Shown: positions 5,968-24,518 of the stretch, piece after piece
Position numbering within the stretch: position 1 is the first letter of the stretch
Layout: each line of letters begins with the position of its first letter
Source of the DNA: Patescibacteria group bacterium
Lineage (GTDB): Bacteria > Patescibacteriota > Microgenomatia > UBA1400 > PJMF01
DNA: 64,000 nucleotides
Assembly: GCA_016861085.1 (NCBI GenBank)
Contig: BOKR01000001.1
Location: 825,696 to 889,695 of the forward strand
Direction of reading: 5' to 3'
Position numbers and translations under genes: made by a program
The notes under the pieces: model-generated
Told to the model about the DNA's origin: nothing
What the model saw: only the letters and a program-made list of their open reading frames with translations
The model's database searches: none

Positions 5968-6180
5968 ATGAGAAAAAATGCCAAACTGCCCAAAGTGCTT
6001 GGCAAAAAAGTTCAGCAAGCTCGGAAGAAAACTGGTTTATCACAGGAAGCAGTTGCTTTTAAAGTAGGTGTCAGTCGTGCCTACATGGGTTACATAGAGC
6101 AAGGACGTAACGTCCCCTCGCTGGAAGTGCTCCAGAAAATTGCTAAGGTACTGAAGGTGAAGCTTAGCGACCTCGTTTAG
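5968..6180 (+). CDS. XRE-family HTH transcriptional regulator
   Basis: HTH_3 signature (GLSQEAVAFKVGVSRAYMGYIEQGRNVPSLEVLQKIAKVL). Confidence 0.8.
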   Translation: MRKNAKLPKVLGKKVQQARKKTGLSQEAVAFKVGVSRAYMGYIEQGRNVPSLEVLQKIAKVLKVKLSDLV

Positions 6181-8883: not shown

Positions 8884-10172
8884 AAAATTGGTTCCTTTCC
8901 GGTTAATTTTGTATAGCGGTCAATAATGACATCGCAGAAGACTGGATCGAGCTCGCAAAGGTAGGCTCGGCGTCTCAGTTGTTCGCAAGCTACAAGTAGC
9001 GAGCCACTCCCACCAAAAGTGTCGAGCACGAGGTCTCCTGGCTTTGTGCATCGCCTGAGTGCTTTTTCATGTAGTGACGGTAATTTCTCGGTAGGATGCA
9101 AGTAATCTTGCCCAGCCTTACGTTTGACCAACCAAATTTCCATTAGGTCTAGAATGTCATCATGCAACCTATTGCCAGTGCCCACTTCTTTGTTTAAAAT
9201 CTCATTGAGATTGAGTAACTTGGGGTTACGGTATGGTTTGCCACGGACACCATAGATAACCGGTTCATAGCACTTGTTGAACGAGTTTCCGCTCGTGGGT
9301 GAAAAATTATTTTTAATCCACAGGCATACTCGCTCATGCTTGATGCCTAGTTCCATGTAGAGCGTTTGCAGCAACCAAATCCAGTTCTGATCCATGTAGT
9401 AGAAGTAGTGAGCATCTGGCTTACTCACTGCAATCGCATTACTAATTGCATCGTGGAGGAATTGGCGGTACTCTTCAGGTGATTTGGAATCGTTAGTTTT
9501 GGTCGCTCCATATTTGCCCTGAGTGCTGACTCCTTTGTCATAGTCTAGGCTAATGTTAAATGGGCTATCCGTATAGGTCATGTCAATTCGCTCGTTTTTC
9601 ACCAGTCGCTGAATGTCAGCAAGCGAAGTGGCATCACCGCAAAGTAGCCTGTGTGGGCCCAATTGATACAGGTCACCTAGTTTGGATCTAGGTTCAGCGT
9701 GTAGGATGACAGCCTGCTCAACATCAAAGTCATCGTCTTGAATTTCTAGAGCCTCATCCCAGATTGCTGACAGATCTGAGTCATCAAAACCTGTTTCAAG
9801 CAGTACATCGAGCTCGAAATTGCGAAGAAGTTCCACATCAAATTCACCAACGTTTTTGTTTAAGCGAAGATTTAATTTCTGCTCGGCTTCTAGTGGTAAA
9901 TAAACACTAACTGTTGGAGCAGTTTTGTAACCAAGCTTTCTCATGAGTTTCAGCCTCTGATGACCTCCGACCAGTACAAACTCTCTACCTGGGTAGGTAT
10001 TAATCACAAGTGGCTCAACCACTCCGTAGATCTCTAAGCTTTTGGTCAAATCTGCCTCTGCCTTTTGTGACAAAAATCTTGGATTATATTTTGCCTCTTT
10101 GATTTTTTCGATCGACACTTCAGTGATTTGAAGTTCCTTTACCTTGTACGATTGCTGTATGCTTTTGGGCAT
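8874..10172 (-). CDS. ParB-like nuclease domain fused to DNA methyltransferase
   Basis: N-terminal ParB/Srx motif (VLVGGHQRLKLMRKLG). The MTase motifs are TDSPFN (IV-like) and DTFGGSGS (I). Confidence 0.75.
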   Translation of the reverse strand: MPKSIQQSYKVKELQITEVSIEKIKEAKYNPRFLSQKAEADLTKSLEIYGVVEPLVINTYPGREFVLVGGHQRLKLMRKLGYKTAPTVSVYLPLEAEQKLNLRLNKNVGEFDVELLRNFELDVLLETGFDDSDLSAIWDEALEIQDDDFDVEQAVILHAEPRSKLGDLYQLGPHRLLCGDATSLADIQRLVKNERIDMTYTDSPFNISLDYDKGVSTQGKYGATKTNDSKSPEEYRQFLHDAISNAIAVSKPDAHYFYYMDQNWIWLLQTLYMELGIKHERVCLWIKNNFSPTSGNSFNKCYEPVIYGVRGKPYRNPKLLNLNEILNKEVGTGNRLHDDILDLMEIWLVKRKAGQDYLHPTEKLPSLHEKALRRCTKPGDLVLDTFGGSGSLLVACEQLRRRAYLCELDPVFCDVIIDRYTKLTGKEPILCK

Positions 10173-10364
10173 ATCGCTCCTTTCATTTGCGGAAAAATTG
10201 ATAAAAAAAAAGACGCATCCCTGAATACAATTCAGTTGCCTAAAAAAAGCAACGAAATAATATCCAAAAATGCGTCATTTAACGTGTCCGCACACGACTC
10301 TCACGAGTAAGCTTACTTTAAATCATCTCAAACGGAAATGCAATAGGAAAAATGACAAATTAGA

Positions 10365-10480
10365 TTGATATATCAATGTATATAGACGCATATACGTGCA
10401 TATAAAAGCATGTACGTTTACATATTCTAAATTCAGCTTGAACAACAAAATGAAATTCTGCTATCATTACTTTGATAGCA
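10365..10480. promoter_or_regulatory. Candidate operator/promoter region for C gene: 12 bp palindrome TTGATATATCAA, 3x10 bp tandem repeats (GCATATACGT GCATATAAAA GCATGTACGT), and inverted repeat TGCTATCA-N6-TGATAGCA abutting the start codon
   Basis: Read directly from sequence at 10365-10376, 10388-10417 and 10459-10480. Confidence 0.45.
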
Positions 10481-10496
10481 TTTGAGTGTTATAAAA

Positions 10497-10709
10497 ATGA
10501 GTAAAACCCAGTCAATCCTAGCCCAGAAAATCAAAAGTCATCGAAAAGCCAATGATATGACTCAGGAATCTCTTGCAAAAGAGGCGAACATTCCGTACAC
10601 AACTCTGACTAAAATAGAATCTGGCGTTATTAGAAACCCAACCATTGATACTGTTATGAAAATAGCAGAAGCTTTAAATACCACTTTGGATGAATTAACT
10701 AAGGAATAA
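10497..10709 (+). CDS. Controller (C) protein-like XRE HTH regulator of the R-M operon
   Basis: 70 aa HTH_3 protein (MTQESLAKEANIPYTTLTKIESG). The stop is 2 nt before the mod ATG. The tool's TTG start at 10482 was replaced by the ATG at 10497. Confidence 0.6.
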   Translation: MSKTQSILAQKIKSHRKANDMTQESLAKEANIPYTTLTKIESGVIRNPTIDTVMKIAEALNTTLDELTKE

Positions 10710-10711
10710 GT

Positions 10712-12571
10712 ATGGCAAAAAAAGATTATACAAACTGGGATAGAAAAGAACTGATTAAAGAAATTGAGCAACTTCGTAAACGTAAGAAATATGGGCTTGT
10801 TTGGGAAGATAAGCCAGAGGATGTGGTTGAGCAGTGCAAAACTGAATTACCAGTTTTAGAAGAAGTGAAAGACAAGGAAATAATTACCGATTCAAACAAA
10901 CCAGTAAATTTATTGATTGAGGGTGATAACTACCATGCTCTCTCTGTTTTAAACTACACGCATAATTCAAAAATTGACGTTATTTATATTGATCCCCCAT
11001 ATAACACTGGTGCTAAAGATTGGAAATACAACAATGACTATGTTGACGGTGAAGATCCTTACCGACATACAAAATGGATCTCATTTATGTATCATCGCCT
11101 TTCAATTGCTAAAAATTTATTAAACAAAGACGGAATTATTTGTGTAACTATCGATGATTATGAAATGCCTAGACTATGGTTAATTATGGAAGAGGTTTTT
11201 GGTGAAATAAATTTCTTAGGAGCTGTAGCAATAAGAATTAATCCTGGGGGGAGAAAGTCGAAAAGAAAGATTGCTGCACAACACGAATATGCTTTATTCT
11301 TTTCTAGAAGCTCTGGTACAAGCATAGCAAAGATTTTTAAAGATATTAATGATAAGTCTCACTCTTATAAACAAGATGAAGATGGAGAGTATTACGAAGA
11401 AAGAAATTTAAGAAAAGATGGAGCTGATAGTTTAGCAAAAGAAGGCTCTTCTCGATATTACAGCATATATTATGATCCCCAATCAGGAAGACTAAGTACT
11501 CAAGAAAAGCTTAAGATAGAAATACTTCCCATAGACACAAATGGACAAAAAAGAATTTGGAGAAGATCAAAAGATGTAATAGATGAAATGAGCAATAAAA
11601 AGGAAATATTTGTAAAAGAAACTAAAAGTGGATTGCAAGTATACTTTAAATTTAGAGGTGGATTGAAAGGTGAAACACCTAAAAGTTTCTGGGATAATGT
11701 AAAGTATTCTGCTAGTGAGCATGGCACTCAAATGTTGAACAATATTCTCGGGACAAGAGAAGCGTTCAACTTTCCAAAATCTCCGTATGCGGTTTCTGAC
11801 TGCATTAAAATTGCTAGTTCAAAGAAAAATGCTACTATCTTAGATTTTTTTGCAGGATCAGGTACAACTGGTCAAGCCGTCTTAGAGCTAAATAAGCAAG
11901 ATGGTGGATCTAGAAAATTTATTCTATGTACAAACAATGAAAACAATATCGCTGAAGAAATTACTCACACAAGGGTTAATAATGTGATTAATGGTTATAA
12001 ATATACAGGAATAGAAAAAACAGTATTAGCTGATGTAAAAATAACTGAAAAGAATATTTATGAGTTAGATGAGATATTGGAAAGATTTGAGTTAATTAAG
12101 ACAGATAAGCTCAATAAATATGAAAAAATTGAATTAAAAATTGAAGAGAATACTATTCGTTTATACGGTATAACTAAACACTCTGGATTTAAAGATGGAT
12201 TAGGCGGAAATCTAAAATACTATAAAACGTCATTTGTACCAGCTGATCCCACAGATAAGAACAAAACAATTTTGACCAGTAAAATATCAGAAATGCTCTG
12301 TATAAAAGAAGATACTTTTGAAAGTGTAAAAAATACACCAAACTACAAGATTTATCGAAACAATAAAAAATACATGGGTATTATTTTTAATCACGATTCA
12401 ATTGAAGACTTTAAAACGGAGATTAAGGAATTTGACAAAAAAATAAATATTTACATCTTTTCCTTGGGAGACGACACATTTGATGAAGAATTCAAAGATG
12501 TAAGTGGAATTGCAAAAATTTTACCAATTCCTGAAGCTGTACTCAGAGTATATAGAAGAATTTTTAAATAA
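10712..12571 (+). CDS. mod: Type III restriction-modification methyltransferase (Mod), N6-adenine
   Basis: DPPYNTG (motif IV) near the N-terminus and FFAGSGTTGQAV (motif I) in the C-terminal third, i.e. beta-class order. 619 aa. Followed by res. Confidence 0.85.
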   Translation: MAKKDYTNWDRKELIKEIEQLRKRKKYGLVWEDKPEDVVEQCKTELPVLEEVKDKEIITDSNKPVNLLIEGDNYHALSVLNYTHNSKIDVIYIDPPYNTGAKDWKYNNDYVDGEDPYRHTKWISFMYHRLSIAKNLLNKDGIICVTIDDYEMPRLWLIMEEVFGEINFLGAVAIRINPGGRKSKRKIAAQHEYALFFSRSSGTSIAKIFKDINDKSHSYKQDEDGEYYEERNLRKDGADSLAKEGSSRYYSIYYDPQSGRLSTQEKLKIEILPIDTNGQKRIWRRSKDVIDEMSNKKEIFVKETKSGLQVYFKFRGGLKGETPKSFWDNVKYSASEHGTQMLNNILGTREAFNFPKSPYAVSDCIKIASSKKNATILDFFAGSGTTGQAVLELNKQDGGSRKFILCTNNENNIAEEITHTRVNNVINGYKYTGIEKTVLADVKITEKNIYELDEILERFELIKTDKLNKYEKIELKIEENTIRLYGITKHSGFKDGLGGNLKYYKTSFVPADPTDKNKTILTSKISEMLCIKEDTFESVKNTPNYKIYRNNKKYMGIIFNHDSIEDFKTEIKEFDKKINIYIFSLGDDTFDEEFKDVSGIAKILPIPEAVLRVYRRIFK

Positions 12572-12584
12572 TAGGAAAAATATT

Positions 12585-14798
12585 ATGTTAATTAAAGACT
12601 ATCAAGATAATGCTGTCAAAAAACTACTTTCGAGATCAAAGGAGTTGTTGGCTCAAGGTGGAGAAAAAAGATTAATTTTCAAAGCTCCTACCGGTTCTGG
12701 AAAAACCATAATGACCGCAGAGTTTATCAAGCAACTGATAAATGACAACGAAGTCAATCTTCCACTCTCATTCATTTGGACTGCACCAAGAAAATTACAT
12801 ACCCAAAGTAAGGAAAAGATCGAAAAGTACTTTGAAGATACAAGAGTTTTGGAATGTTCAAATTTTGAAGATCTTCTTGATAAACAGATAGCTGAAAATG
12901 AAATGCTTTTCTTGAACTGGGAAAGTATAAATAAAAAGGATAAGAACACAATTGTCAAAGAAAACGAGAAGGAGTTTTATCTAGGAAAAATTGTTGAGAA
13001 TACTAAAGAAGAAGGTAGGGAGATAATTCTCATTATTGATGAAAGCCATCATCATGCCACGAGTGATATATCACAAGAGTTAATCTCAGATATTTCTCCA
13101 AGACTCACGATAGAAGTATCTGCAACTCCTGTTATTCAAAACCCAGACGAAATAGTTTCTGTTCCTTTGGATGAAGTAAAGCTAGAGGGAATGATCAAAA
13201 AATCCGTGACTTTAAATCCAGACTTTAAGAACATCCTTTCAGGGGACAGTTTGACTACTACTCTTTCTGATGGTACTGATTCAATGGTTTTGGAAGAAGC
13301 AATTAAAAAAAGGGTTGAGATTTTAGAGGCATATCAAAAAGAAGGAATTGACGTTAATCCACTACTGCTAATTCAGTTGCCAGATAGGAAGACTCAGCAA
13401 GAAGATGAGATCAAGGCGGAGATTATAAAAATCTTAAAAGATAAATATGGTATTACAACCGAAAACGGAAAACTAGCAGTCTACTTATCAGAAGAAAAAG
13501 AGAATTTAGAAAACATTGCAAAAAACAATAACGAGACAGAGGTTTTAATTTTTAAACAAGCAATCGCTTTAGGTTGGGATTGCCCTCGTGCACAAATATT
13601 AGTGCTCTTCCGAGATTGGAAAAGCTTGACTTTCTCTGTTCAAACTGTCGGGCGTATTATGCGTATGCCACAACCTGAAGTAGGTCACTATCAAACAGAG
13701 ATACTTAACCATGGCTTTGTATACACCAACCTCTCCAACATTGAAATTAAAGAAGACATGGCTAAAAGCTATGTAACAATTTATACAAGTAAGAGGATAG
13801 ATAACTATCAATCGATAAAACTAGAGTCAGTTTATAGAGTACGACAAAGAGAAAAGACTCGGTTGAATCCAAAGTTTATAAGAATATTTTTAGATGAGTC
13901 TGAAAAATATGATTTAGCTAATAAAATTGAGATCGAGAACCAGAGACTAGAAATTTCACTCATATCTGATTATCAAGCAACTGGTGTTGATAAGTTGGCA
14001 AGTGAAGAGATTTCAGGAGAAACTAAAATAGATGCTACTAACGAATTAGACTTACAAAAACTATTTGATTACTTTGCTCGTAATAACTTGTCTCCTTTTT
14101 ATCCAGAAGACAGATCAATTGGTAGAGTTAAGGAAGCAATTTACTACTTCTTTAAAACAAAATTAAATATCGACTACTCAGAAGAGTTTTCTAAAATTAT
14201 CAATATTGTACTGAGCCCCAAAAATATTCAGCACTTTATAAACGTTTTGGATAGCACAAAGACTGAGTACATTTCAGAAACTTCAAAAAAAGCAAATGAG
14301 CTACAGAAATTAAAGGGATGGGATGTTCCAACTCAATTAAATTTTGGTGGCAACTTTGTAGAAATGAATGTAAACAAATCAGTTATGATTCCATTCTATT
14401 ATGATAATAAATGGAAGACTGAGGAAGTTTTCATAAAGCAGTTAGAGTTGTCCAATAATGTTTTGTGGTGGTTTAAAAACGGTGATAGAGATGCAACTTT
14501 CTTTGCCGTGCCATACACAGAAAATGGTGAGGAAAAACCATTCTATGTGGACTTTATCGTATGTTTGAAGAATGGAAAGATTGGTCTTTTGGATACAAAA
14601 AGCGGAAACACAATTAGGGATGCTAGAGAAAAGAGTGATGGCTTGCAGAGTTATATTAAGAAAAACCAAAACTTTTTTGGTGGAATAGTTGCTAATACAA
14701 ACAGCAGAGACTACACAGGCAGATGGATGTGTTTCACAGGTGTTGGCAATGAACTATCGCCAGACGATTTTTCAAATTGGGAATTATTAGATTTATGA
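12585..14798 (+). CDS. res: Type III restriction endonuclease (Res) helicase-nuclease subunit
   Basis: Helicase Walker A APTGSGKT and DEAH-box IDESHH. C-terminal PD-(D/E)xK-like YVDFIVCLKNGKIGLLDTKSG. Start moved to the ATG at 12585, which has an AGGAAAAA RBS 5 nt upstream. Confidence 0.85.
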   Translation: MLIKDYQDNAVKKLLSRSKELLAQGGEKRLIFKAPTGSGKTIMTAEFIKQLINDNEVNLPLSFIWTAPRKLHTQSKEKIEKYFEDTRVLECSNFEDLLDKQIAENEMLFLNWESINKKDKNTIVKENEKEFYLGKIVENTKEEGREIILIIDESHHHATSDISQELISDISPRLTIEVSATPVIQNPDEIVSVPLDEVKLEGMIKKSVTLNPDFKNILSGDSLTTTLSDGTDSMVLEEAIKKRVEILEAYQKEGIDVNPLLLIQLPDRKTQQEDEIKAEIIKILKDKYGITTENGKLAVYLSEEKENLENIAKNNNETEVLIFKQAIALGWDCPRAQILVLFRDWKSLTFSVQTVGRIMRMPQPEVGHYQTEILNHGFVYTNLSNIEIKEDMAKSYVTIYTSKRIDNYQSIKLESVYRVRQREKTRLNPKFIRIFLDESEKYDLANKIEIENQRLEISLISDYQATGVDKLASEEISGETKIDATNELDLQKLFDYFARNNLSPFYPEDRSIGRVKEAIYYFFKTKLNIDYSEEFSKIINIVLSPKNIQHFINVLDSTKTEYISETSKKANELQKLKGWDVPTQLNFGGNFVEMNVNKSVMIPFYYDNKWKTEEVFIKQLELSNNVLWWFKNGDRDATFFAVPYTENGEEKPFYVDFIVCLKNGKIGLLDTKSGNTIRDAREKSDGLQSYIKKNQNFFGGIVANTNSRDYTGRWMCFTGVGNELSPDDFSNWELLDL

Positions 14799-15775
14799 AG
14801 GCAGTTTATAAACAACTTATTGATAAGTCGTTAGCTGCTGCTCTTTCTGCCATTGAAATATATAACAAACCTGATTTTAAGTATCGTGATGAAATATTTG
14901 TAATTTTAATTATTAATAGCTGGGAACTTATACTTAAGTCAAAGATACTAAAAGATAATAGAAATAAGCTTAATAGTCTTTATGTATACGAACAAAATGG
15001 AAGAATAAAAAGGAATAGAACCGGAAATCCTTTTACGATAGAAATCGTAGGAGCAATAAGAAAAAATAACCTAGAACAAATTATCGTTGAAAATTTAGAA
15101 AAATTAATTGAACTTAGAGATACGTCTGTCCATTTTTATAATGCTGATTCAATCTCATATATTATATATAGCTTGGGTGCTGCAGCCCTCAAAAACTATT
15201 CAAAAATTGTAAATGAGTGGTTTGCTATTGATTTGGTCAAGGAATATAACTTTAATATTCTCCCGCTAGGTTTTGCTTACAATTTTCAAACATTCAACAA
15301 TATTTCATTTGAGCAACAACACGAATCAATTAAAAAAATTATCACATCAATTCAAAATTACCAAAGCAGAAACCAAACCGAGTCAAATGGATACTATTTA
15401 ATTTGCGAAATCCAAACAAAGTTAACCTCTGCCAAAAAAATATCAACTGCTGATACCGTAACTGTTAAAATTGATAATAGCGATCCAAATGCACAAGTTG
15501 CTGTTATTAAAAAGCAAAAGACTACAGACATTTATCCTTATAGTTGGTCGGAAATAAGAGATTACTTAAGAAGCAATCTAAAAGATTTCAATCAAAATAA
15601 ACTAAATAGTATTATTAAATCTGAAAAAATAAAAGAAAATATCAAATATTCAGCTTATAACTTCAAAAGCAAACGTGATGAAGACGAGTTTAAACAAACT
15701 GGAGTGGTAAAATCTGGCACCCCCAGCTTATACAACGATGAGTGTCGCCAGTACATACTGAGCAAGCTTAAATAA
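14795..15775 (+). CDS. Abi_2 (AbiD/AbiF)-like HEPN-motif protein, putative abortive-infection partner of the R-M operon
   Basis: The start overlaps the res stop (ATGA). N-terminus IYNKPDFKYRDEIF resembles the Abi_2 YNxxDxxxR region. R-x4-H motif (ELRDTSVH). Confidence 0.3.
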   Translation: MKAVYKQLIDKSLAAALSAIEIYNKPDFKYRDEIFVILIINSWELILKSKILKDNRNKLNSLYVYEQNGRIKRNRTGNPFTIEIVGAIRKNNLEQIIVENLEKLIELRDTSVHFYNADSISYIIYSLGAAALKNYSKIVNEWFAIDLVKEYNFNILPLGFAYNFQTFNNISFEQQHESIKKIITSIQNYQSRNQTESNGYYLICEIQTKLTSAKKISTADTVTVKIDNSDPNAQVAVIKKQKTTDIYPYSWSEIRDYLRSNLKDFNQNKLNSIIKSEKIKENIKYSAYNFKSKRDEDEFKQTGVVKSGTPSLYNDECRQYILSKLK

Positions 15776-17180
15776 GCTTCCTCCAAATTTCCACCATCGC
15801 CCAAGTATCCAGTTTGCAGTAGGTTAGTAAGTTTTGTCTAATTTGTTCCTTTTCTTCCGCAGTTATAGCTCCATAAACCATCTCATGCCAAGCCAACATT
15901 GCTTTGGTTCCCTCACCAATTTCTAGTTCTTTGTAGCTCAGCTCTGGACATAAGACAGGCAAGACTTTTTTGATTGAAGCACTGCCATGAAAGCGGTGGT
16001 CAACATATAAGCCATTTTTGAACACATCCATCAAGTCATAGACTCGTTCATTGATGCTTTGCAGTTGCGGAGCTAAATCAGGGCATAAAACAGCTAACTC
16101 ATCATTCCTGCCACACTCAAAGCCTTTGTTCCAGACAATCACTGATCCAGTGTCGCCAATGACATTGCGCAGCTCTGTCGCAAGATGTTTGGCAGGATCA
16201 CCAGTTTCAGTTGCCAGACATTCATAATGCTCGAACTCATCACTCTCAGGATTTCTAGCAACGTGGATGGAAAACTGTGTTACTGCCTGCTGATACGGCT
16301 TGTAGCCATCGTACATGGGTAAGGCTTCGCCATAAGTTTCATAGTCTAAGAAGTAGATGGGATATTCCAGCCTACTTAATTCTTCTGCAATGGCATCGTG
16401 ATCAATGATTGGTTGGTTTTGTCTGGCAGATTGAATTTGCAGTCTTTGCTTATAGTTACTGGTGAAAGTATTAGGAATGTCCTTGACCAACTCCACTCCC
16501 ATATTCAGGAGTTCACGGTATTGTTTCTTGCTGGCTCTGCCTAGCTCATAAATTGAGCCATCAGGTAGATTGGGGAAGCAGTGGTCAGGATAGATACAGG
16601 TACCAGGATTAAAACAATGCTCATCGCTGGGTTCTTGCACGAGTCGCATCACTCCCCATGCCTCAGATCTCAATTGATACACCTCATCTTCTTTTTTGGC
16701 GATGTGGTCAGTCATGTCTTCCACGATAAAGAGTTCATTGATATCAATCTCACCTGCTCGTTGATAGTCACTGTTGACTCGCACTAAATAGACTTTGTTG
16801 ATAGGCAGTGTGGCTTTACCCACTAAATACTGGAACGTCACATCATATTTATGCTCAGTGTGAATGGTTGTGCTACTTTTGATTTCATACAGGTCATAGG
16901 TGTTGTTCACAGTGTCATGAACCAACGCATCAATACGGGACTCGTAGTTGCCATCGGTCAGAGTAGCTTCAAAGGTGAGTGTGGTGCCAGCAGGATACTG
17001 TGTGGCAACTTTCAGCTGCAGAAATTCTTTCGCTAACTTTTCAACGCTATACCCTTGCTTCATCGTGTGTTGGTCGTACAGGGATGGTGGTTTTGGTGGA
17101 GTATCGCTATGAACTGATAACCACATGTGCAGTGGAGATTCTAGGTAGCTTAAGAAGAGTGATTTGGTCAGTTTCATCAA
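15768..17180 (-). CDS. DUF2779-family protein (N-terminal RecB/Cas4-like PD-(D/E)xK nuclease with Cys cluster, C-terminal DUF2779)
   Basis: N-terminus KSLFLSYLESPLHMWL. YDLYEIKSST (ExK). Cys cluster CFNPGTCIYPDHC. C-terminal YFLDYETYG...SIKKVLPVL...MLAWHEM. Confidence 0.5.
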   Translation of the reverse strand: MMKLTKSLFLSYLESPLHMWLSVHSDTPPKPPSLYDQHTMKQGYSVEKLAKEFLQLKVATQYPAGTTLTFEATLTDGNYESRIDALVHDTVNNTYDLYEIKSSTTIHTEHKYDVTFQYLVGKATLPINKVYLVRVNSDYQRAGEIDINELFIVEDMTDHIAKKEDEVYQLRSEAWGVMRLVQEPSDEHCFNPGTCIYPDHCFPNLPDGSIYELGRASKKQYRELLNMGVELVKDIPNTFTSNYKQRLQIQSARQNQPIIDHDAIAEELSRLEYPIYFLDYETYGEALPMYDGYKPYQQAVTQFSIHVARNPESDEFEHYECLATETGDPAKHLATELRNVIGDTGSVIVWNKGFECGRNDELAVLCPDLAPQLQSINERVYDLMDVFKNGLYVDHRFHGSASIKKVLPVLCPELSYKELEIGEGTKAMLAWHEMVYGAITAEEKEQIRQNLLTYCKLDTWAMVEIWRKLI

Positions 17181-17249: not shown

Positions 17250-18872
17250 ATGTCGTTTCAATATTTGCAACCTCAACAACATTACGAAGATCGCTATGAC
17301 GTTGGCACGATCAAAGAGTGCTTAAGAGTTTTAGACATGGTTAATGGTATTGGTGAAAAAATGAAACTTGAGCCAAAGCTTCAAAGCTATCCAGAGTCAG
17401 AGCAAGATCGGAACATGGGGTTATTCAGGGGCAGGATGCTCTTTTTCATTCAGGCTCAAAGACATAAACACAGGGCATCAACGATTGCTGAGTGGATGGA
17501 GTCTGATCGCCTTAAACAGGATAAGCAAGACAACACGCCAGCTCCTAAAGCTAACTGTCCTGAGTGTGGAGGTGCTATGACTGATGATGGCTCTCACCAC
17601 TTAATTGATTGGGATGACGATAAACCCATGAGGGTGCTATTCACCTTCAACTGTCCAAAATGCAAAAAGCGACAAGGTGTGTATGACGATGGCGAGATCT
17701 ATGTTTCCAAATCTGACTTCTGTCCTGACTGCAAACAAAAGCTAGAGAGGAAAAGCAGTAAGAAGGATGAAGTCGTTACTACACGCTACAACTGTAAAAG
17801 CTGTGGCTACTCAAATAAAGAGACTTGGGATTTGAAGAAAAGCGATGAAGAACATAAGAAATGGCGAGAAGAACATTCAAAAAAAGAGATGGAAGATAAG
17901 CAACTGTTGGAGAAGTATCGAGCCGAATTTTGTCTATCTAATGAAAAAGGCAAAGAATATGCTGAAACCCTCGAAGCTCTGGAAGTTGCTCAGGAAGTAA
18001 AAGAAGAAGTTTTGGCTGAAATGGATACACCAGCTCATGAAAAGCTGTTATCAGTAAATAAAATCGCAATCACTGACTTAGAGGCTTTAGTGAATAAAGC
18101 ACTGGAAGAAAGTGGTTTCACTCGCCTGTCTATTGGTGAACCAGACATCGATCGTCATGTGTTAGTGCCCTTCACTGTTCAAGAAACTAAACTCAAACGA
18201 CGAGATCGGGAAAGTGTTGCTGATTTGTATGAATTGCTGAAAACTGCTCTAAATGATACCAACTGGCGAGCACCGAAAGATTTGATTACTTACCGCTTGG
18301 GATTTCTCAGCGGCAAGCTCAAAGGCTATGAATCAGAAGATGACCTGCTTAAACTCTTTGGCAAAGAAGAGCCAAAGAAACCCAAGTCAAAGCTTGATCC
18401 AGAGTTTAGAGCTAAGTATGAGCACCACAACCTCGTACAACTAGCCAGAATGGACGCTGAATACATTGCGACCAAACGTATTAGGACTCGCAGACTGAAA
18501 GATGAACCAGACGGTTTCTTCCTCAATGATGGTGGCAGAGGTTACACCTGTGGAATTTGCAGAAGATCACAAAATGGTGAAGACATTTGGTGGCGACCAG
18601 ATGGTTTGCGATGCCGAGACTGCTGGAGAAATATCCAAGAAGGTGTCATCCCTGTTCTTGATCTAGATAAAGAGTGGTGGGAGGAAGAACACTTTGATAA
18701 GTATGACGTTGAAAAAAGAGGTGTGAAGCCATCATCGATCAAAAAATTGAGACGAGAAGGTGTTTTAACTGGAAGAGATTTGAAAGATGCGAATGGAAAC
18801 AAGTACTTGACGGTTTTTTTGGTGAGTGAGAATCAGAAATTTATTAAGGACTACCCCAGAAAAGAGAGATAG
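17250..18872 (+). CDS. Hypothetical multi-zinc-ribbon protein
   Basis: At least five CxxC pairs (CPECGG, CPKCKK, CPDCKQ, CKSCGY, CGICRR...CRDCW) separated by charged coiled-coil-like segments. Confidence 0.4.
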   Translation: MSFQYLQPQQHYEDRYDVGTIKECLRVLDMVNGIGEKMKLEPKLQSYPESEQDRNMGLFRGRMLFFIQAQRHKHRASTIAEWMESDRLKQDKQDNTPAPKANCPECGGAMTDDGSHHLIDWDDDKPMRVLFTFNCPKCKKRQGVYDDGEIYVSKSDFCPDCKQKLERKSSKKDEVVTTRYNCKSCGYSNKETWDLKKSDEEHKKWREEHSKKEMEDKQLLEKYRAEFCLSNEKGKEYAETLEALEVAQEVKEEVLAEMDTPAHEKLLSVNKIAITDLEALVNKALEESGFTRLSIGEPDIDRHVLVPFTVQETKLKRRDRESVADLYELLKTALNDTNWRAPKDLITYRLGFLSGKLKGYESEDDLLKLFGKEEPKKPKSKLDPEFRAKYEHHNLVQLARMDAEYIATKRIRTRRLKDEPDGFFLNDGGRGYTCGICRRSQNGEDIWWRPDGLRCRDCWRNIQEGVIPVLDLDKEWWEEEHFDKYDVEKRGVKPSSIKKLRREGVLTGRDLKDANGNKYLTVFLVSENQKFIKDYPRKER

Positions 18873-18902: not shown

Positions 18903-18921
18903 TTTACGCTTTGTGCGTAAA
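18903..18921. promoter_or_regulatory. Perfect 7-5-7 palindrome TTTACGC-tttgt-GCGTAAA, candidate LexA/SOS operator 10 bp upstream of the lexA ATG
   Basis: Read directly from sequence. Confidence 0.45.
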
Positions 18922-18930
18922 ATAGTGCGT

Positions 18931-19551
18931 ATGAATAAGAATCTGACTTCTAAACAGAAGCAAGTTTTGGCTACGATCATCGATTTGACTCAAAAATTAG
19001 GTACTGAACCTACGTTGGAGCAAGTGAGACATCAGCTCGGTTATAGCAGTACAAGTTCTGTTCAGCGACATACTGATGTGTTGAAAGAAATTGGTTATTT
19101 GAGTCAGGGTCGTGGCTTGTCTCTACCATCAGCCGATAATTTTGTTCAGATTCCATTGGTTGGTAACGTTGCCTGCGGAACTCCATTACTCGCTTTGGAA
19201 AACACAGAAGCTTATATTCCTTTTGACTCATCCTCGCTCAAAGGAAGTGCTGAGGACTATTTTTTTCTGCGAGCGGTTGGTGACAGTATGAACAATGCCA
19301 ACGTGAATGGAAAAAACATTGATGATGGTGATTATGTGCTGATCAAAAAACAGGACTATCCTTCATTCGGTCAAAGAGTCGTTGCCCTGATTGGTGAAAA
19401 CGCTACCATTAAGAAACTAAAGCAAGGTGATGGTCATATCATCTTAGAACCTGAATCAACGAATCCAAATAATAAACCAATATATGTTTTTGAAGACTTC
19501 TCGGTGCAAGGAATCGTGCAAGATGTTCTTAAAAGAGAAAGAACAAAATGA
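18931..19551 (+). CDS. lexA: LexA-family repressor (wHTH + S24 peptidase)
   Basis: N-terminal LexA DNA-binding domain. S24 catalytic Ser in AVGDSM and Lys in ATIKKLK. The alternative GTG start at 18913 would cut into the palindrome. Confidence 0.85.
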   Translation: MNKNLTSKQKQVLATIIDLTQKLGTEPTLEQVRHQLGYSSTSSVQRHTDVLKEIGYLSQGRGLSLPSADNFVQIPLVGNVACGTPLLALENTEAYIPFDSSSLKGSAEDYFFLRAVGDSMNNANVNGKNIDDGDYVLIKKQDYPSFGQRVVALIGENATIKKLKQGDGHIILEPESTNPNNKPIYVFEDFSVQGIVQDVLKRERTK

Positions 19552-20534
19552 GCACCTACACACTTGATGACTTTATTGTTTCGCCATCTATAACTAACTC
19601 AGATCTCCTCTCTTACGCCAATTCGCATGTAAACTTACCCTCTGACCGTGCCAAAGAGCATAGAGATCAAGCCAATATCCTTCGAGAAAAACTAGAAAAA
19701 TATATTGATGAACATCCCGATTACAATTTAGTTAAAATGCTTCACTCAGGGAGTGTTGCAAAAGGTACTGCACTTAGACAAGTGAACGATATTGATGTAG
19801 CTGTTTATGTTAGAGCTGCTGAAGCACCTGAAACTGGTTCTGGGCTCACGCTCTGGTTACTAGATCGTCTTCAAGAGGTGTATCCCAACTTTGATAATGA
19901 TCAATTCCAACCTCAGGATCACTGCATTACGATTAATTATCGAAGTGGCTTAAGTGTGGATGTAGTACCAGTACTTTACGAAGGGGACGCGGACAATAAA
20001 GGTTACCTTATTACCAAATCTGGTGAGAAGGTACTGACTAGTATTTCACGCCATCTTGATTTTATACGCAAACGTAAGGGCTTACATCCAAATCACTACG
20101 TTCAGTTGATCAGGTTTATTAAGTGGTGGGTCAGGAGACAAAAGGACTTGAATCAAGATTACAAGTTCAAATCAATGATGGTTGAGCTTATTTGTGCACA
20201 CTTAGTTGATAAAGGTCTTGAGCCTTCCAACTATATTGAAGCTCTTCAATCTTTTTATGCTTACATCGTAAGAACTGGATTAAAAGAGCCAATATATTTT
20301 GGAGACTATTACAATCCAAAGTCTATAACACTAACTGATCTCCCTATCCAGATTTATGACCCCGTAAATCCAGAAAATAACATTGCACACAAATATACGG
20401 AGTTAAATCGACAGTTAATTGTTAGCTCAGCAGTAACAGCTCTTAACGCTATAACAACTGCTGCTAATAGTACCACTCAAGCAGAGGCTGTCAGCATGTG
20501 GCAAAAGGTTTTTGGTCCAACATTTAGGAAATAA
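19548..20534 (+). CDS. cGAS/DncV-like nucleotidyltransferase (CD-NTase) of CBASS
   Basis: GSVAKGTALRQVNDIDVAV (GS...GTA...DhD) plus third Asp in SVDVVPV. 328 aa. The start overlaps the lexA stop (ATGA). Confidence 0.75.
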   Translation: MSTYTLDDFIVSPSITNSDLLSYANSHVNLPSDRAKEHRDQANILREKLEKYIDEHPDYNLVKMLHSGSVAKGTALRQVNDIDVAVYVRAAEAPETGSGLTLWLLDRLQEVYPNFDNDQFQPQDHCITINYRSGLSVDVVPVLYEGDADNKGYLITKSGEKVLTSISRHLDFIRKRKGLHPNHYVQLIRFIKWWVRRQKDLNQDYKFKSMMVELICAHLVDKGLEPSNYIEALQSFYAYIVRTGLKEPIYFGDYYNPKSITLTDLPIQIYDPVNPENNIAHKYTELNRQLIVSSAVTALNAITTAANSTTQAEAVSMWQKVFGPTFRK

Positions 20535-20537
20535 GGT

Positions 20538-21050
20538 ATGTCATACAGTCAAACGTTAACCAATACATCTACATTTACACTCTCTGATGCTAAGTATTTA
20601 GCTTCTCGCATTGCTACGGATCTCACCCAAATGAGATTGCTGTATGGTAAGCCTACTGAGCAGCGTGTCCAAGATTATGCGATTGAGGCAGCTATGTTGC
20701 TAAAGTTTGGCCTTCTTAGCTCAGTGAAGTACGGCTTCCAACTAAACGGAAACTGGATATACGCCATTAATTATTCTGTAAATTATTTAGGACAACTGCA
20801 AACAACAAACGATGATCCTGGAGACATTCCCTCTGCCGAAGGTGTGGCTAACGCCACCTGGCACTCATTTTTAACGACACGTCATAACTCAGACCTAAGT
20901 CAAACCGAGCTCGATTCTATTAATAGTCAGTTACCAATTTCTCGGAATAATGGGGATGAGCCTGGTTCTAACCATGGCACTTGGGTGACTGAAAAAACAT
21001 ATTCAAAAAATGGTGTCGCAATGACGCGTAGTTATTTTAGGAGTTCATAA
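20538..21050 (+). CDS. HORMA-like protein (CBASS Cap7-like)
   Basis: 170 aa. Position between CD-NTase and AAA+ ATPase. N-terminal segment LSDAKYLASRIATDLTQMRLLYGKP resembles the HORMA N-terminal SAExV...ILYQRGIYP pattern. Confidence 0.4.
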   Translation: MSYSQTLTNTSTFTLSDAKYLASRIATDLTQMRLLYGKPTEQRVQDYAIEAAMLLKFGLLSSVKYGFQLNGNWIYAINYSVNYLGQLQTTNDDPGDIPSAEGVANATWHSFLTTRHNSDLSQTELDSINSQLPISRNNGDEPGSNHGTWVTEKTYSKNGVAMTRSYFRSS

Positions 21051-21964
21051 TGTCTGATCAGATTTTTGAAATTGTTAGAACCTATCCTGACCCTGTTGCT
21101 CAAAAACAATATGACAATCTTGTAGGTATAGATCATATAAAAAATAGGCTCAAAATTGAGGCAGCTGTTATTTTAAATCCAGCAGGGATTACAACTTGGA
21201 GTGAATCTTTTTATAAAAAAGAAGTGGAACTGGTAAAGGTTTTAAAACAGAGACCCCCGCTATTTATTTTTGCAGGGGATGTGGGTACTGGTAAAACAGC
21301 TCTTGCAGAATCATTTGCTAATGAAATAGCTAACACTGAAAAGGTTAATATAACTCTATTTAAACTCAGCCTTAGTGCAAGAGGATCAGGCATTGTTGGT
21401 GAAATTACCAAACTAATTAGTGAATCATTTGATCAATTAAGAAAAGAGGCTCAATCTCTAAGTGGTTCAAAATCAACTTTGATCTTTTTTATTGACGAGG
21501 CAGATGCTTTGGCACAGTCAAGAGAGGCATCTCAAATGCATCATGAAGACAAAGCTGGCGTAAACGCATTGATTAGAGGTATAGATTCAATCAAGGATTT
21601 GCCAATCCCAGTACTGGTTATCATGTGTACTAATCGTCATAGCTCTATTGATCCTGCTATTAGACGTCGTAGTGCCGTCACCTTCGAATTTTCAAGACCT
21701 TCTCAGGAACAGTGTTTTTCCTTATTCAAAAGCTATTTAACTGAACTAAGCATTACAGATGAAGAGATAAAAGAAGCAGTGAGTATGTGTATCCCATATG
21801 ATGGTTTGAGCTATGGATACACTTATTCTGATTTAACACAGAAAGTTCTTCCTTCTCTGCTTCTCAATTCATACCCTGATAATCCTGTTACTTTTGAGAC
21901 TTTAACAGAAGTAATTAAAACAACGCCACCAACAACGCCATTTAATGAATATCAAGGAAGCTAA
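21050..21964 (+). CDS. TRIP13/Pch2-like AAA+ ATPase (CBASS Cap6-like)
   Basis: Walker A GDVGTGKTALAE, Walker B IFFIDEADAL, and sensor/arginine region CTNRHSSIDPAIRRR. 304 aa. Start overlaps the previous stop. Confidence 0.65.
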   Translation: MSDQIFEIVRTYPDPVAQKQYDNLVGIDHIKNRLKIEAAVILNPAGITTWSESFYKKEVELVKVLKQRPPLFIFAGDVGTGKTALAESFANEIANTEKVNITLFKLSLSARGSGIVGEITKLISESFDQLRKEAQSLSGSKSTLIFFIDEADALAQSREASQMHHEDKAGVNALIRGIDSIKDLPIPVLVIMCTNRHSSIDPAIRRRSAVTFEFSRPSQEQCFSLFKSYLTELSITDEEIKEAVSMCIPYDGLSYGYTYSDLTQKVLPSLLLNSYPDNPVTFETLTEVIKTTPPTTPFNEYQGS

Positions 21965-21967
21965 AAT

Positions 21968-22690
21968 ATGAACAAAATTGATTTGTCTGAATTATTTGAG
22001 TCCCTACAAAAAACACTATTAAGTGAGTTAGAGGTTAGTAGTTCTATTACGCACCCAACAACACATGGCGATGATGCTGAACTTAACTGGACAAATGTTC
22101 TCAAGAGTTTGCCAAGTCGATATAAAGTAAACCGTGGGTTTGTTGTAGACAGCCATGGGAATCTGAGTGAGCAAATTGATGCAATCATTTATGATAATTA
22201 TTACTCGCCGCTAATTTTTAATAGAGAATCAACTATTTATGTACCGGCTGAAAGTGTTTATGCAGTCCTAGAAATTAAACCTGAGTTATCTAAGGACACC
22301 TTGGAATATGCTGGTAAGAAAGCCAAATCAGTTCGAGATCTACAAAGAACTAGCATGGCAGTTCGTCAAATTGATGGCTCATATAAAAGTAGAGAGTTAC
22401 CTACTATATTGTCTGGACTTCTGACAGCCAAATCCAGTTGGTCTCCAGCATTTGGAGATAGTTTTAATGGTGCTTTAACTACCCTGACTGACTCCTCAAG
22501 GATTGATCTAGGTATTGCTTTGCAAGATGGCTCTTTTAATTTTTCACAGCAAGAAGATGGTGCTTTCTTGGTGAATACAAGTCCTAAAGAAACAGCACTA
22601 ATTAGCTTCTTTATAAATTTAACCAAAAGACTTCAAATGCTTGGAAATGCTCCAGGTATTGATTTGGACACCTATTTTAAATGTTACTAA
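21968..22690 (+). CDS. nucC: NucC-like PD-(D/E)xK endonuclease effector
   Basis: 240 aa (NucC is about 241 aa). D71 (SEQIDAIIYD) and E102-x-K104 (VLEIKPE) match restriction-endonuclease-fold spacing. Last gene of the operon. Confidence 0.55.
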   Translation: MNKIDLSELFESLQKTLLSELEVSSSITHPTTHGDDAELNWTNVLKSLPSRYKVNRGFVVDSHGNLSEQIDAIIYDNYYSPLIFNRESTIYVPAESVYAVLEIKPELSKDTLEYAGKKAKSVRDLQRTSMAVRQIDGSYKSRELPTILSGLLTAKSSWSPAFGDSFNGALTTLTDSSRIDLGIALQDGSFNFSQQEDGAFLVNTSPKETALISFFINLTKRLQMLGNAPGIDLDTYFKCY

Positions 22691-23586: not shown

Positions 23587-23620
23587 CGACGCACGGGTTC
23601 CAGACCCGGGTGCTCCGCAT
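23587..23620 (+). repeat. Copy 1 of a 34 bp direct repeat (GACGyACnGGTTCCAGACCC...TGCTCCGC) resembling a tRNA-Ser T-arm/acceptor 3' end; forms hairpin CGGG-TTCCAGA-CCCG
   Basis: About 30/34 identity to the copy at 24485-24518. Similar to the 3' ends of the tRNA-Ser genes in this window (GGGTTCGAAtCCC...CTCCGCCA). Confidence 0.45.
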
Positions 23621-24484: not shown

Positions 24485-24518
24485 GGACGTACTGGTTCCA
24501 GACCCACATGCTCCGCCA
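24485..24518 (+). repeat. Copy 2 of the 34 bp tRNA-3'-end-like direct repeat, ends CTCCGCCA
   Basis: See copy 1. Confidence 0.45.

Follow-up and report, generated by a model that had tools for sequence, protein, structure and literature searches.

Gene organization of the locus

The region described here lies in a 64,000-nucleotide stretch of DNA from a Patescibacteria group bacterium (contig BOKR01000001.1, positions 825,696 to 889,695 of the forward strand; hereafter the window). Between window positions 10170 and 15800, four open reading frames (ORFs), all on the + strand, make up a cassette headed by a small regulatory gene. This leader gene (10497-10709) encodes a 70-residue helix-turn-helix (HTH) protein of the XRE family which resembles the controller (C) proteins of restriction-modification (R-M) systems. 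It is followed by mod (10712-12571), encoding a 619-residue Type III Mod, and by res (12585-14798), encoding a 737-residue Type III Res. The last gene (14795-15775) encodes a 326-residue HEPN protein of the DUF3644/EC042_2821 family.

The four genes are separated by 2, 13, and -4 nt. The TAA stop codon of the HTH gene is followed by gt and then by the mod ATG at 10712. The start of res is most likely the ATG at 12585, which lies 13 nt past the mod stop and has its own AGGA Shine-Dalgarno sequence; an overlapping GTG at 12504 is less likely. The HEPN gene begins at 14795 within an ATGA that it shares with the res stop. Every downstream gene has either its own Shine-Dalgarno sequence or an overlap with the gene before it, and neither terminator-like sites on the + strand nor strong internal promoters were found in the cassette. 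Judged from the sequence, the packing of all four genes appears tight enough to be compatible with a single transcription unit. An earlier annotation made from the DNA letters alone (the sequence-only reading) had described this co-directional arrangement, and the ORFs, the 2 nt HTH-mod gap, and the ATGA overlap are as claimed there.

The cassette has a GC content of 0.32, compared to about 0.40-0.42 in its flanks. It is bordered by genes for a ParB-methyltransferase and a DUF2779 protein, each on the - strand. Also present in the island are a serine recombinase, a terminase-like gene, additional methyltransferases, and a CBASS operon. Identical or near-identical cassettes are carried by several metagenome contigs, while megablast searches of phage and plasmid collections returned 0 matches to it. 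The cassette is a mobile defense module, a low-GC insert in a mobile island.

The Type III restriction-modification core

Mod contains a DPPY motif (residues 94-97; 10991-11002) that precedes FAGSG (residues 380-384; 11849-11863), which is the motif order of the beta class. The protein matched PADLOC MTase_III (6e-81) and Pfam N6_N4_Mtase (3.4e-30). Among structures in the PDB, it matched Mbo45V (7e-50), the H. pylori Mod (3.9e-36), and EcoP15I Mod (2.2e-25). These motifs and scores agree with the earlier proposal of a beta-class Type III mod gene, and identify the 619-residue protein as a Type III Mod, predicted to be a beta-class N6-adenine methyltransferase.

Comparison with a closely related locus (L006) revealed cassettes that are 84-92% identical outside of the mod target-recognition domain (TRD). 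Homology between the two was broken only in this region (11193-11841 in the window; 4402-5047 in L006). The break would imply a specificity swap between cassettes, and TRD exchange is the usual route by which Type III systems diversify their specificity.

Res consists of an N-terminal superfamily 2 (SF2) helicase with GSGKT, DESH, SAT, and QTVGR motifs, and a C-terminal PD-(D/E)xK nuclease (D656...D670-T-K672). The motif residues of both domains were invariant across 19 homologues. Matches were obtained to Pfam ResIII (2.7e-20) and to PADLOC REase_III (only 1.1e-17), while a phmmer search of PDB sequences gave no match to any solved Res. The sequence-only reading had listed a DEAH helicase plus a PD-ExK nuclease. 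Both domains are indeed present, but motif II of the helicase is DESH rather than DEAH. The Res family is very large and strongly conserved, with more than 7692 homologues, many of which are 72-78% identical and found in Patescibacteria, Chlorobi, and Flavobacterium; several carry the source name 'type III restriction enzyme'. In homologous loci, mod is also located directly before res.

The locus thus combines a beta-class Mod, a Res with SF2 helicase and PD-(D/E)xK nuclease domains, and the mod-res gene order, and its R-M core appears to be an ordinary Type III system. In all of these respects, including the C-terminal position of the nuclease domain, it is similar to EcoP15I and EcoP1I. Res of EcoP15I is 970 residues in length; the 737-residue Res encoded here is ~230 residues shorter.

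A HEPN gene in an exchangeable position behind res

The fourth protein matched Pfam DUF3644 (PF12358; 1.1e-46, 159.2 bits versus a cutoff of 27.6) and the PADLOC candidate PDC-S19 (3.6e-69, 231.7 bits). The Rx4H HEPN motif noted in the sequence-only reading is present as RDTSVH (R108...H113; 15116-15133), and both of its defining residues were invariant in 60 homologues. The accompanying suggestion of an AbiD/F (Abi_2)-like protein found no such backing, as a Pfam scan at E <= 0.01 yielded DUF3644 only; kinship with Abi_2 is at the level of the HEPN superfamily only. On these profile matches, the protein is assigned to the DUF3644/EC042_2821 HEPN family (PDC-S19).

An AlphaFold2 model of the protein (pLDDT 80.8) was compared to the PDB with Foldseek. 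The best matches were HepT/SO_3166 HEPN toxins, which were weak (E 0.16), and phmmer against PDB sequences gave no match. The C-terminal domain is short and mostly helical, with weak structural matches to SKI/Dachshund-homology domains, and in the model may be read as winged-helix-like.

DUF3644 is among the new HEPN domain families described by Anantharaman et al. (2013), who also place the EC042_2821 family, which overlaps DUF3644, in R-M operons. PDC systems were put forward because they lie embedded in Type I R-M, BREX, and DISARM loci ('guilt by embedding'); PDC-S19 is a candidate defense family in PADLOC, where it is treated as a single gene. HEC-08 has a DUF3644 HEPN domain and provides anti-phage defense that requires the motif histidine, while two Ishtar proteins with N-terminal HEPN domains (DUF4145 or DUF3644) cause plasmid loss. 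The protein studied here shares with HEC-08, Ishtar, and PDC-S19 an N-terminal DUF3644 HEPN domain with an Rx4-6H motif and a location near R-M or defense operons. It differs from other EC042_2821/DUF3644 settings in being attached to a Type III system rather than to Type I, BREX, or DISARM.

In a set of 80 genomes drawn from many phyla, the co-directional neighbors of DUF3644 genes were enriched for HsdS, HsdR, HsdM, Eco57I-type, and ResIII proteins, and DUF3644 genes were embedded in Type I, IIG, and III R-M and BREX loci. Such genes often lie inside R-M operons (e.g. between hsdS and hsdR in L023). Together with the published placement of EC042_2821 in R-M operons and the ATGA overlap, which would translationally couple the HEPN gene to res, this would favor an integrated four-gene system. 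The HEPN nuclease would then be held inactive by the Mod/Res complex and released by a phage anti-restriction factor, comparable to PrrC with EcoprrI.

Several observations oppose such an arrangement. In a related locus with ~90% identical flanks (L014), exactly the DUF3644 ORF was exchanged for an unrelated gene of 199 residues, while mod-res remained intact. The exchange spans ~1 kb from the res stop to the DUF2779 stop (14795-15772 in the window; 11299-12336 in L014). DUF3644 was also absent behind Res in all six other sampled lineages of the Res family (L206-L219), which had other genes or nothing in this position. Conversely, many of the 80 DUF3644 loci had no adjacent R-M gene, and both HEC-08 and an Ishtar protein, which carry the DUF3644 HEPN domain in other architectures, work as single genes. 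The clean swap in L014 disfavors a PrrC-like dependence on the R-M complex, and we regard the integrated system as unlikely. The four-gene C-Mod-Res-Abi operon put forward in the sequence-only reading, if taken as an obligate system, is likewise unsupported in view of this swap and of the six lineages lacking DUF3644.

Genes occupying the slot behind res in relatives encode proteins of 199, 220, and 181 residues. None had a Pfam match, and only the 181-residue protein had a PADLOC match, which was weak (PDC-S06). These replacements mark the slot behind res as a swappable effector position. Since the DUF3644 ORF was replaced exactly in L014, is absent behind other Res, and belongs to a family treated as a single-gene candidate, the most probable role of the HEPN gene is that of an independent effector, a second layer of defense placed in this slot.

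The leader gene belongs to a subfamily enriched at R-M operons

The HTH protein matched Pfam HTH_3 (1e-17) and several PADLOC models, including HTH_VI (2.7e-12), capH (1.2e-9), and two Control_protein models (2.9e-10 and 4.4e-8), the latter covering nearly its whole length. A profile search of the PDB ranked SinR (7e-10) above C.BclI (6.9e-7), 434 Cro, and C.AhdI (1.9e-5), with C.Esp1396I at 1.7e-3. By sequence, the protein cannot be assigned specifically to the C-protein family, to which it appears no closer than to SinR or 434 Cro.

These matches bear on a classical C-protein switch, in which the HTH protein would activate and later repress its own promoter via two operators to produce a timed rise of the whole operon. 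The near full-length Control_protein matches and the presence of C.BclI and C.AhdI among the PDB matches are in line with this model; the higher scores of SinR and generic XRE proteins are not. There are further similarities to C.PvuII, C.AhdI, C.BclI, and C.Esp1396I. These, too, are small HTH proteins of the XRE type whose genes head R-M operons and have a palindromic site in their own promoter regions, and C-protein homologues, like those of the protein described here, are also found outside of R-M loci (Sorokin et al. 2009). In contrast to the genes of these C proteins, the HTH gene stands before a mod-res pair of Type III and not before a Type II endonuclease gene.

Alignment of its relatives defined a subfamily with an invariant IPYTTLTKIE(S/I)GVIK.P stretch, and a metagenome scan revealed more than 519 relatives. 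Contexts were examined for 83 loci (80 metagenome and 3 viral). In almost all of them the next gene lay within a few nucleotides of the HTH gene (2-5 nt gap), and the operons were diverse. The 66 genes located directly downstream included 11 N6_N4 methyltransferases, 5 HsdM, 3 ResIII/SNF2 helicases, 3 Type II endonucleases, 1 GmrSD, and 1 HsdR-like protein. Approximately 24 of the 66 were thus R-M or other restriction components, with Types I, II, and III all represented. A generic XRE repressor without R-M association would have undermined the C-protein-like interpretation, and this objection holds in part: R-M systems of all types are enriched, yet about two-thirds of the operons are of other kinds. 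The subfamily is therefore enriched at, and not specific to, R-M operons of all types.

Linkage to Type III-like operons was found repeatedly. HTH homologues with ~55% identity head SNF2-DUF4391-Mod-Res or Mod-Res operons in 3 of 5 contexts examined, and the linkage of the HTH gene with an R-M operon recurs in L206-L209, L011, L018, and L020. In Chlorobi bacterium OLB4 and in a Patescibacteria metagenome-assembled genome, the HTH-mod-res arrangement agrees with the one described here in its 2-4 nt junction and in the N-terminus of Mod. Homologues of roughly half identity thus also precede Type III-like operons elsewhere, consistent with the proposal that a small XRE gene with a palindromic operator heads this mod-res pair. 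The alternative that the HTH is an island-backbone gene was rejected in view of its recurrence with mod-res in unrelated contexts and its location inside the low-GC insert. In viral contigs, the Res family was found at one locus only, profile search included.

Heading so many unrelated cargo operons would also suit a signal-responsive gatekeeper, a regulator that silences its operon until it is removed upon infection or stress, as described for regulators of the CapH/CapP or BrxR type in other defense systems. The PADLOC capH match points in the same direction, as does a LexA-like repressor gene joined to the CBASS operon of the same island by a 4 nt overlap, which hints at regulated defense as a theme of the island. 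Against this, the 70-residue protein is a bare HTH with neither a sensor nor a cleavage domain, and no gene for a partner protease adjoins it. Moreover, a silent R-M system would leave host DNA unmethylated and open to its own Res upon derepression. We consider a gatekeeper of this kind improbable, and the least favored of the explanations weighed here.

Predicted promoter and putative operator

The best promoter-like site in the intergenic region is a predicted sigma-70-type promoter (10438-10467, + strand), comprised of a -35 element TTGAAC (10438-10443), an 18 nt spacer, and an extended -10 element TGcTATCAT (10459-10467). It matches 9 of 12 consensus positions and includes the TG extension. 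The promoter region was invariant in six related loci. Transcription is predicted to start near 10474; the resulting leader would be ~23 nt long, and its Shine-Dalgarno sequence, GAG/GGAG, would be weak. In relatives, GGAG or GGAA is found 9-10 nt ahead of the HTH ATG.

A putative operator (10459-10480) overlaps the predicted -10 element and transcription start. It is a perfect inverted repeat, TGCTATCA-N6-TGATAGCA, with arms at 10459-10466 and 10473-10480, a core of ATCA-N6-TGAT, and half-site centers 10 bp apart. The inverted repeat was invariant in six close relatives while its flanks, including the stretch up to the ATG, varied. The exact repeat occurs once in the window, and 0.21 occurrences are expected for a pattern with up to 2 mismatches, such that the inverted repeat alone is within reach of chance and not compelling.

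The sequence-only reading had the repeat abutting the ATG of a leaderless C gene. In fact, 16 nt separate the two. As the repeat also overlaps the predicted extended -10 element, the leaderless claim is unsupported at this locus. With the repeat over the promoter and GGAG or GGAA present in relatives, an mRNA with a short leader, and a repressor that acts by occluding the promoter, are likelier than a leaderless transcript. A leaderless start from a second candidate element, TATAAA at 10490-10495, was rejected, as the predicted start would lie within the ORF.

Evidence for a cognate site came from the subfamily as a whole. CTATCA was the most enriched hexamer upstream of subfamily HTH genes, occurring in 45 of 64 non-redundant loci versus 5.2 expected. 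Its position was fixed in 36 loci, where its first base lies exactly 10 nt ahead of the ATG, leaving 4 nt to the start codon. It was present upstream of none of 15 divergent XRE relatives without the TKIESGVIK helix, and was not found upstream of the divergent HTH gene of L209. This co-variation of the site with the signature helix argues for a cognate operator.

Subfamily members also share a broader upstream layout (L103-L185, e.g. L129, L018, and L206). A -35-like TTGnnn is followed by a TG(A/T)TAGTATA(A)T box, located ~55 nt before the ATG over a -10-like box, and then by ataCTATCA, which ends 4 nt before the ATG. In some subgroups, a hairpin-like palindrome lies internally, between the TG(A/T)TAGTATA box and CTATCA. 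Candidate readings of this layout include a looping operator, two promoters, or RNA structure.

Two further elements lie upstream of the promoter. The first is a palindrome, TTGATATATCAA (10365-10376), with two TGATA/TATCA-like half-sites back to back. It had been reported as a perfect 12 bp palindrome, which holds for this variant only; the relatives L006, L014, L016, and L017 have TTGATATTTCAA in its place, and the palindrome is imperfect there. The second is a set of imperfect, AT-rich repeats (10380-10417) in 10 bp phase with an ATATAnnnGC-like pattern, upstream of the predicted -35 element. The description of three tandem 10 bp repeats proved weak, as the program TRF instead reports a period of 20 with 1.9 copies (83% matches, score 55). 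The ATATA phasing is nonetheless retained in close relatives, with substitutions. The phased repeats are possibly curved or UP-like DNA, or sites of another factor.

Farther upstream, an imperfect inverted repeat (10208-10280) has 32 nt arms with 72% complementarity and a 9 nt loop. It occupies the strongly conserved backbone side of the intergenic region, next to the start of the ParB-methyltransferase gene.

The architecture of this region returns to the question of a classical C-protein switch. In its favor, extra half-site-like elements are present as TGTTATAAA by the ATG and TTGATATATCAA at 10365, and many C genes are leaderless (Sorokin et al. 2009). In the wider subfamily, CTATCA at -10 to -5 and TACTAT at -12 to -7 would fit leaderless transcripts. 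At this locus, however, the mRNA is probably leadered, and there is one good inverted repeat only: inspection showed no 35 bp double-box layout, unlike the double C-box of C proteins. The position of the repeat over the -10 element and start is a repressing one, and the distal palindrome is imperfect in relatives. Activation would also give no delay of restriction relative to modification, since both mod and res come after the C gene. A classical switch is therefore doubtful here.

Proposed autorepression of a mobile Type III module

We favor, with a probability of roughly 0.55, the interpretation that an HTH-mod-res module resides in the island and is autorepressed as one operon, with the HEPN gene a separate module behind res. 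A mobile three-gene module of XRE regulator, Type III mod, and res would have inserted into the recombinase- and terminase-bearing island and acquired a separate single-gene HEPN defense module directly behind res. The single promoter TTGAAC-18-TGcTATCAT would drive all four genes. Binding of an HTH dimer to TGCTATCA-N6-TGATAGCA over the -10 element and transcription start would then repress the operon that encodes it. Upon entry into a naive cell, the lack of repressor would permit a burst of expression, followed by a low steady level.

Because the regulator precedes both mod and res, this scheme would not include the classical C-protein delay of restriction behind modification. Self-protection would rest instead on Res acting only in complex with Mod, which is a standard property of Type III systems. 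The DUF3644 protein would most likely be an RNA-targeting effector, as are the tested DUF3644-domain proteins of other architecture. Co-expressed with the R-M pair, it would provide a second layer of defense independent of that pair.

A number of findings weigh against this interpretation. Roughly two-thirds of subfamily members head operons unrelated to R-M, which include radical SAM, DsrE, SAM_HAT, and various enzymes, and some of the subfamily loci are near-duplicates, so that their counts are not independent. Among six Res-family lineages sampled by exact-protein look-ups, three have mod-res without the HTH gene. The HTH is therefore an optional leader gene, and its regulation of mod-res is dispensable. 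The promoter matches only 9 of 12 consensus positions, and the region has no excess of such matches (19 found versus 24 expected). Most subfamily members have single CTATCA-type elements ~45 nt apart, unlike the one perfect repeat of this locus; one of the two elements overlaps the -10 box and the other lies 4 nt from the ATG. The binding mode is thus uncertain, and the CTATCA motif could in part be a promoter element. The interpretation also assigns no role to the upstream palindrome and the phased repeats. Repression of the four-gene transcript by the HTH protein is accordingly an inference from sequence, albeit the most likely one.

A close parallel among regulated R-M systems is a C-family gene of Mycoplasma gallisepticum, located upstream of a Type I hsd operon, which seems to act as repressor of the whole operon (PMC12707154). 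In both cases, the regulator gene comes first, and the genes for modification and restriction that follow it belong to a system other than Type II. The two differ in R-M type, and the Mycoplasma case has experimental support while the locus described here is known from sequence. For EcoP15I, control has been described as post-transcriptional, with res translation delayed; an HTH gene or operator is not mentioned in the review.

The HTH-led Type III arrangement is undescribed in the available reviews, which cover C proteins of Type II systems plus a single case in Type I (REBASE was not queried). The R-M core, the HEPN family, and their association are already known. What is new is the C-like leader on a Type III system and the subfamily-wide operator signature. 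Tentatively, IPYTTLTKIE(S/I)GVIK HTH proteins might constitute a large, undescribed class of operon-leader regulators that travel with R-M systems of Types I, II, and III and with other cargo of mobile elements, and control them through an operator of their own (CTATCA, TG(A/T)TAGTATA). If so, C-protein-like control would extend to Type III systems, and at this locus restriction and a HEPN abortive effector would come under the joint control of a single regulator.

Expression control of Type III R-M systems is poorly understood. Autoregulation of mod-res by a leader HTH, if it occurs, would offer a simple and widespread route for these systems to establish in new hosts, and the operator-protein pair found here is ready-made for testing. 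More broadly, the locus depicts defense cassettes as composites in which a regulator is joined to an R-M core whose specificity domains can be exchanged and to an effector slot behind res whose content can likewise change. Each part taken singly is of a known kind, and the gain is in that sense incremental.

Other features of the island

The serine-recombinase end of the island adjoins a tRNA-Ser gene (1446-1533). Near its other end, two 31 nt direct repeats resembling a tRNA T-arm (23588-23618 and 24486-24516) flank a flavodoxin gene. In a search for att sites with the 3' end of the tRNA-Ser, the tRNA-like repeats at 23588 and 24486 did not match.

The CBASS operon is a complete type III operon encoding a CD-NTase, HORMA, TRIP13, and NucC (18913-22690). 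The LexA-like S24 repressor gene that overlaps its start (TIGR00498, 4.8e-34) lies in the same interval, and this overlap may couple the operon to DNA damage or RecA. Directly beside this block, a 540-residue protein (17250-18872, + strand) has several CxxC pairs resembling zinc ribbons and was matched to no family of Pfam, NCBIfam, or PADLOC. Its gene is kept next to the LexA-CBASS block in related contigs.

The DUF2779/UU173-like gene (15768-17180, - strand) overlaps the 3' end of the DUF3644 gene by 8 nt. In an unrelated lineage (L211, 7054-8562), a DUF2779 gene comes after Mod-Res and a HARE-HTH gene, and in L011 it adjoins the ParB-methyltransferase gene. DUF2779 may thus be a recurrent partner of these elements.

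A second XRE gene of 70 residues (5968-6180, + strand) converges on the terminase-like gene and overlaps its end. It was rejected as a paralogue of the leader HTH, with only 28% identity and no signature helix. In L011 (5759-6947) and L012, a 98-residue HTH gene and a reverse-transcriptase gene (RVT_1) lie directly upstream of HTH-SNF2-DUF4391-Mod-Res. This pair is another regulator-led, defense-like module in the same hotspot.

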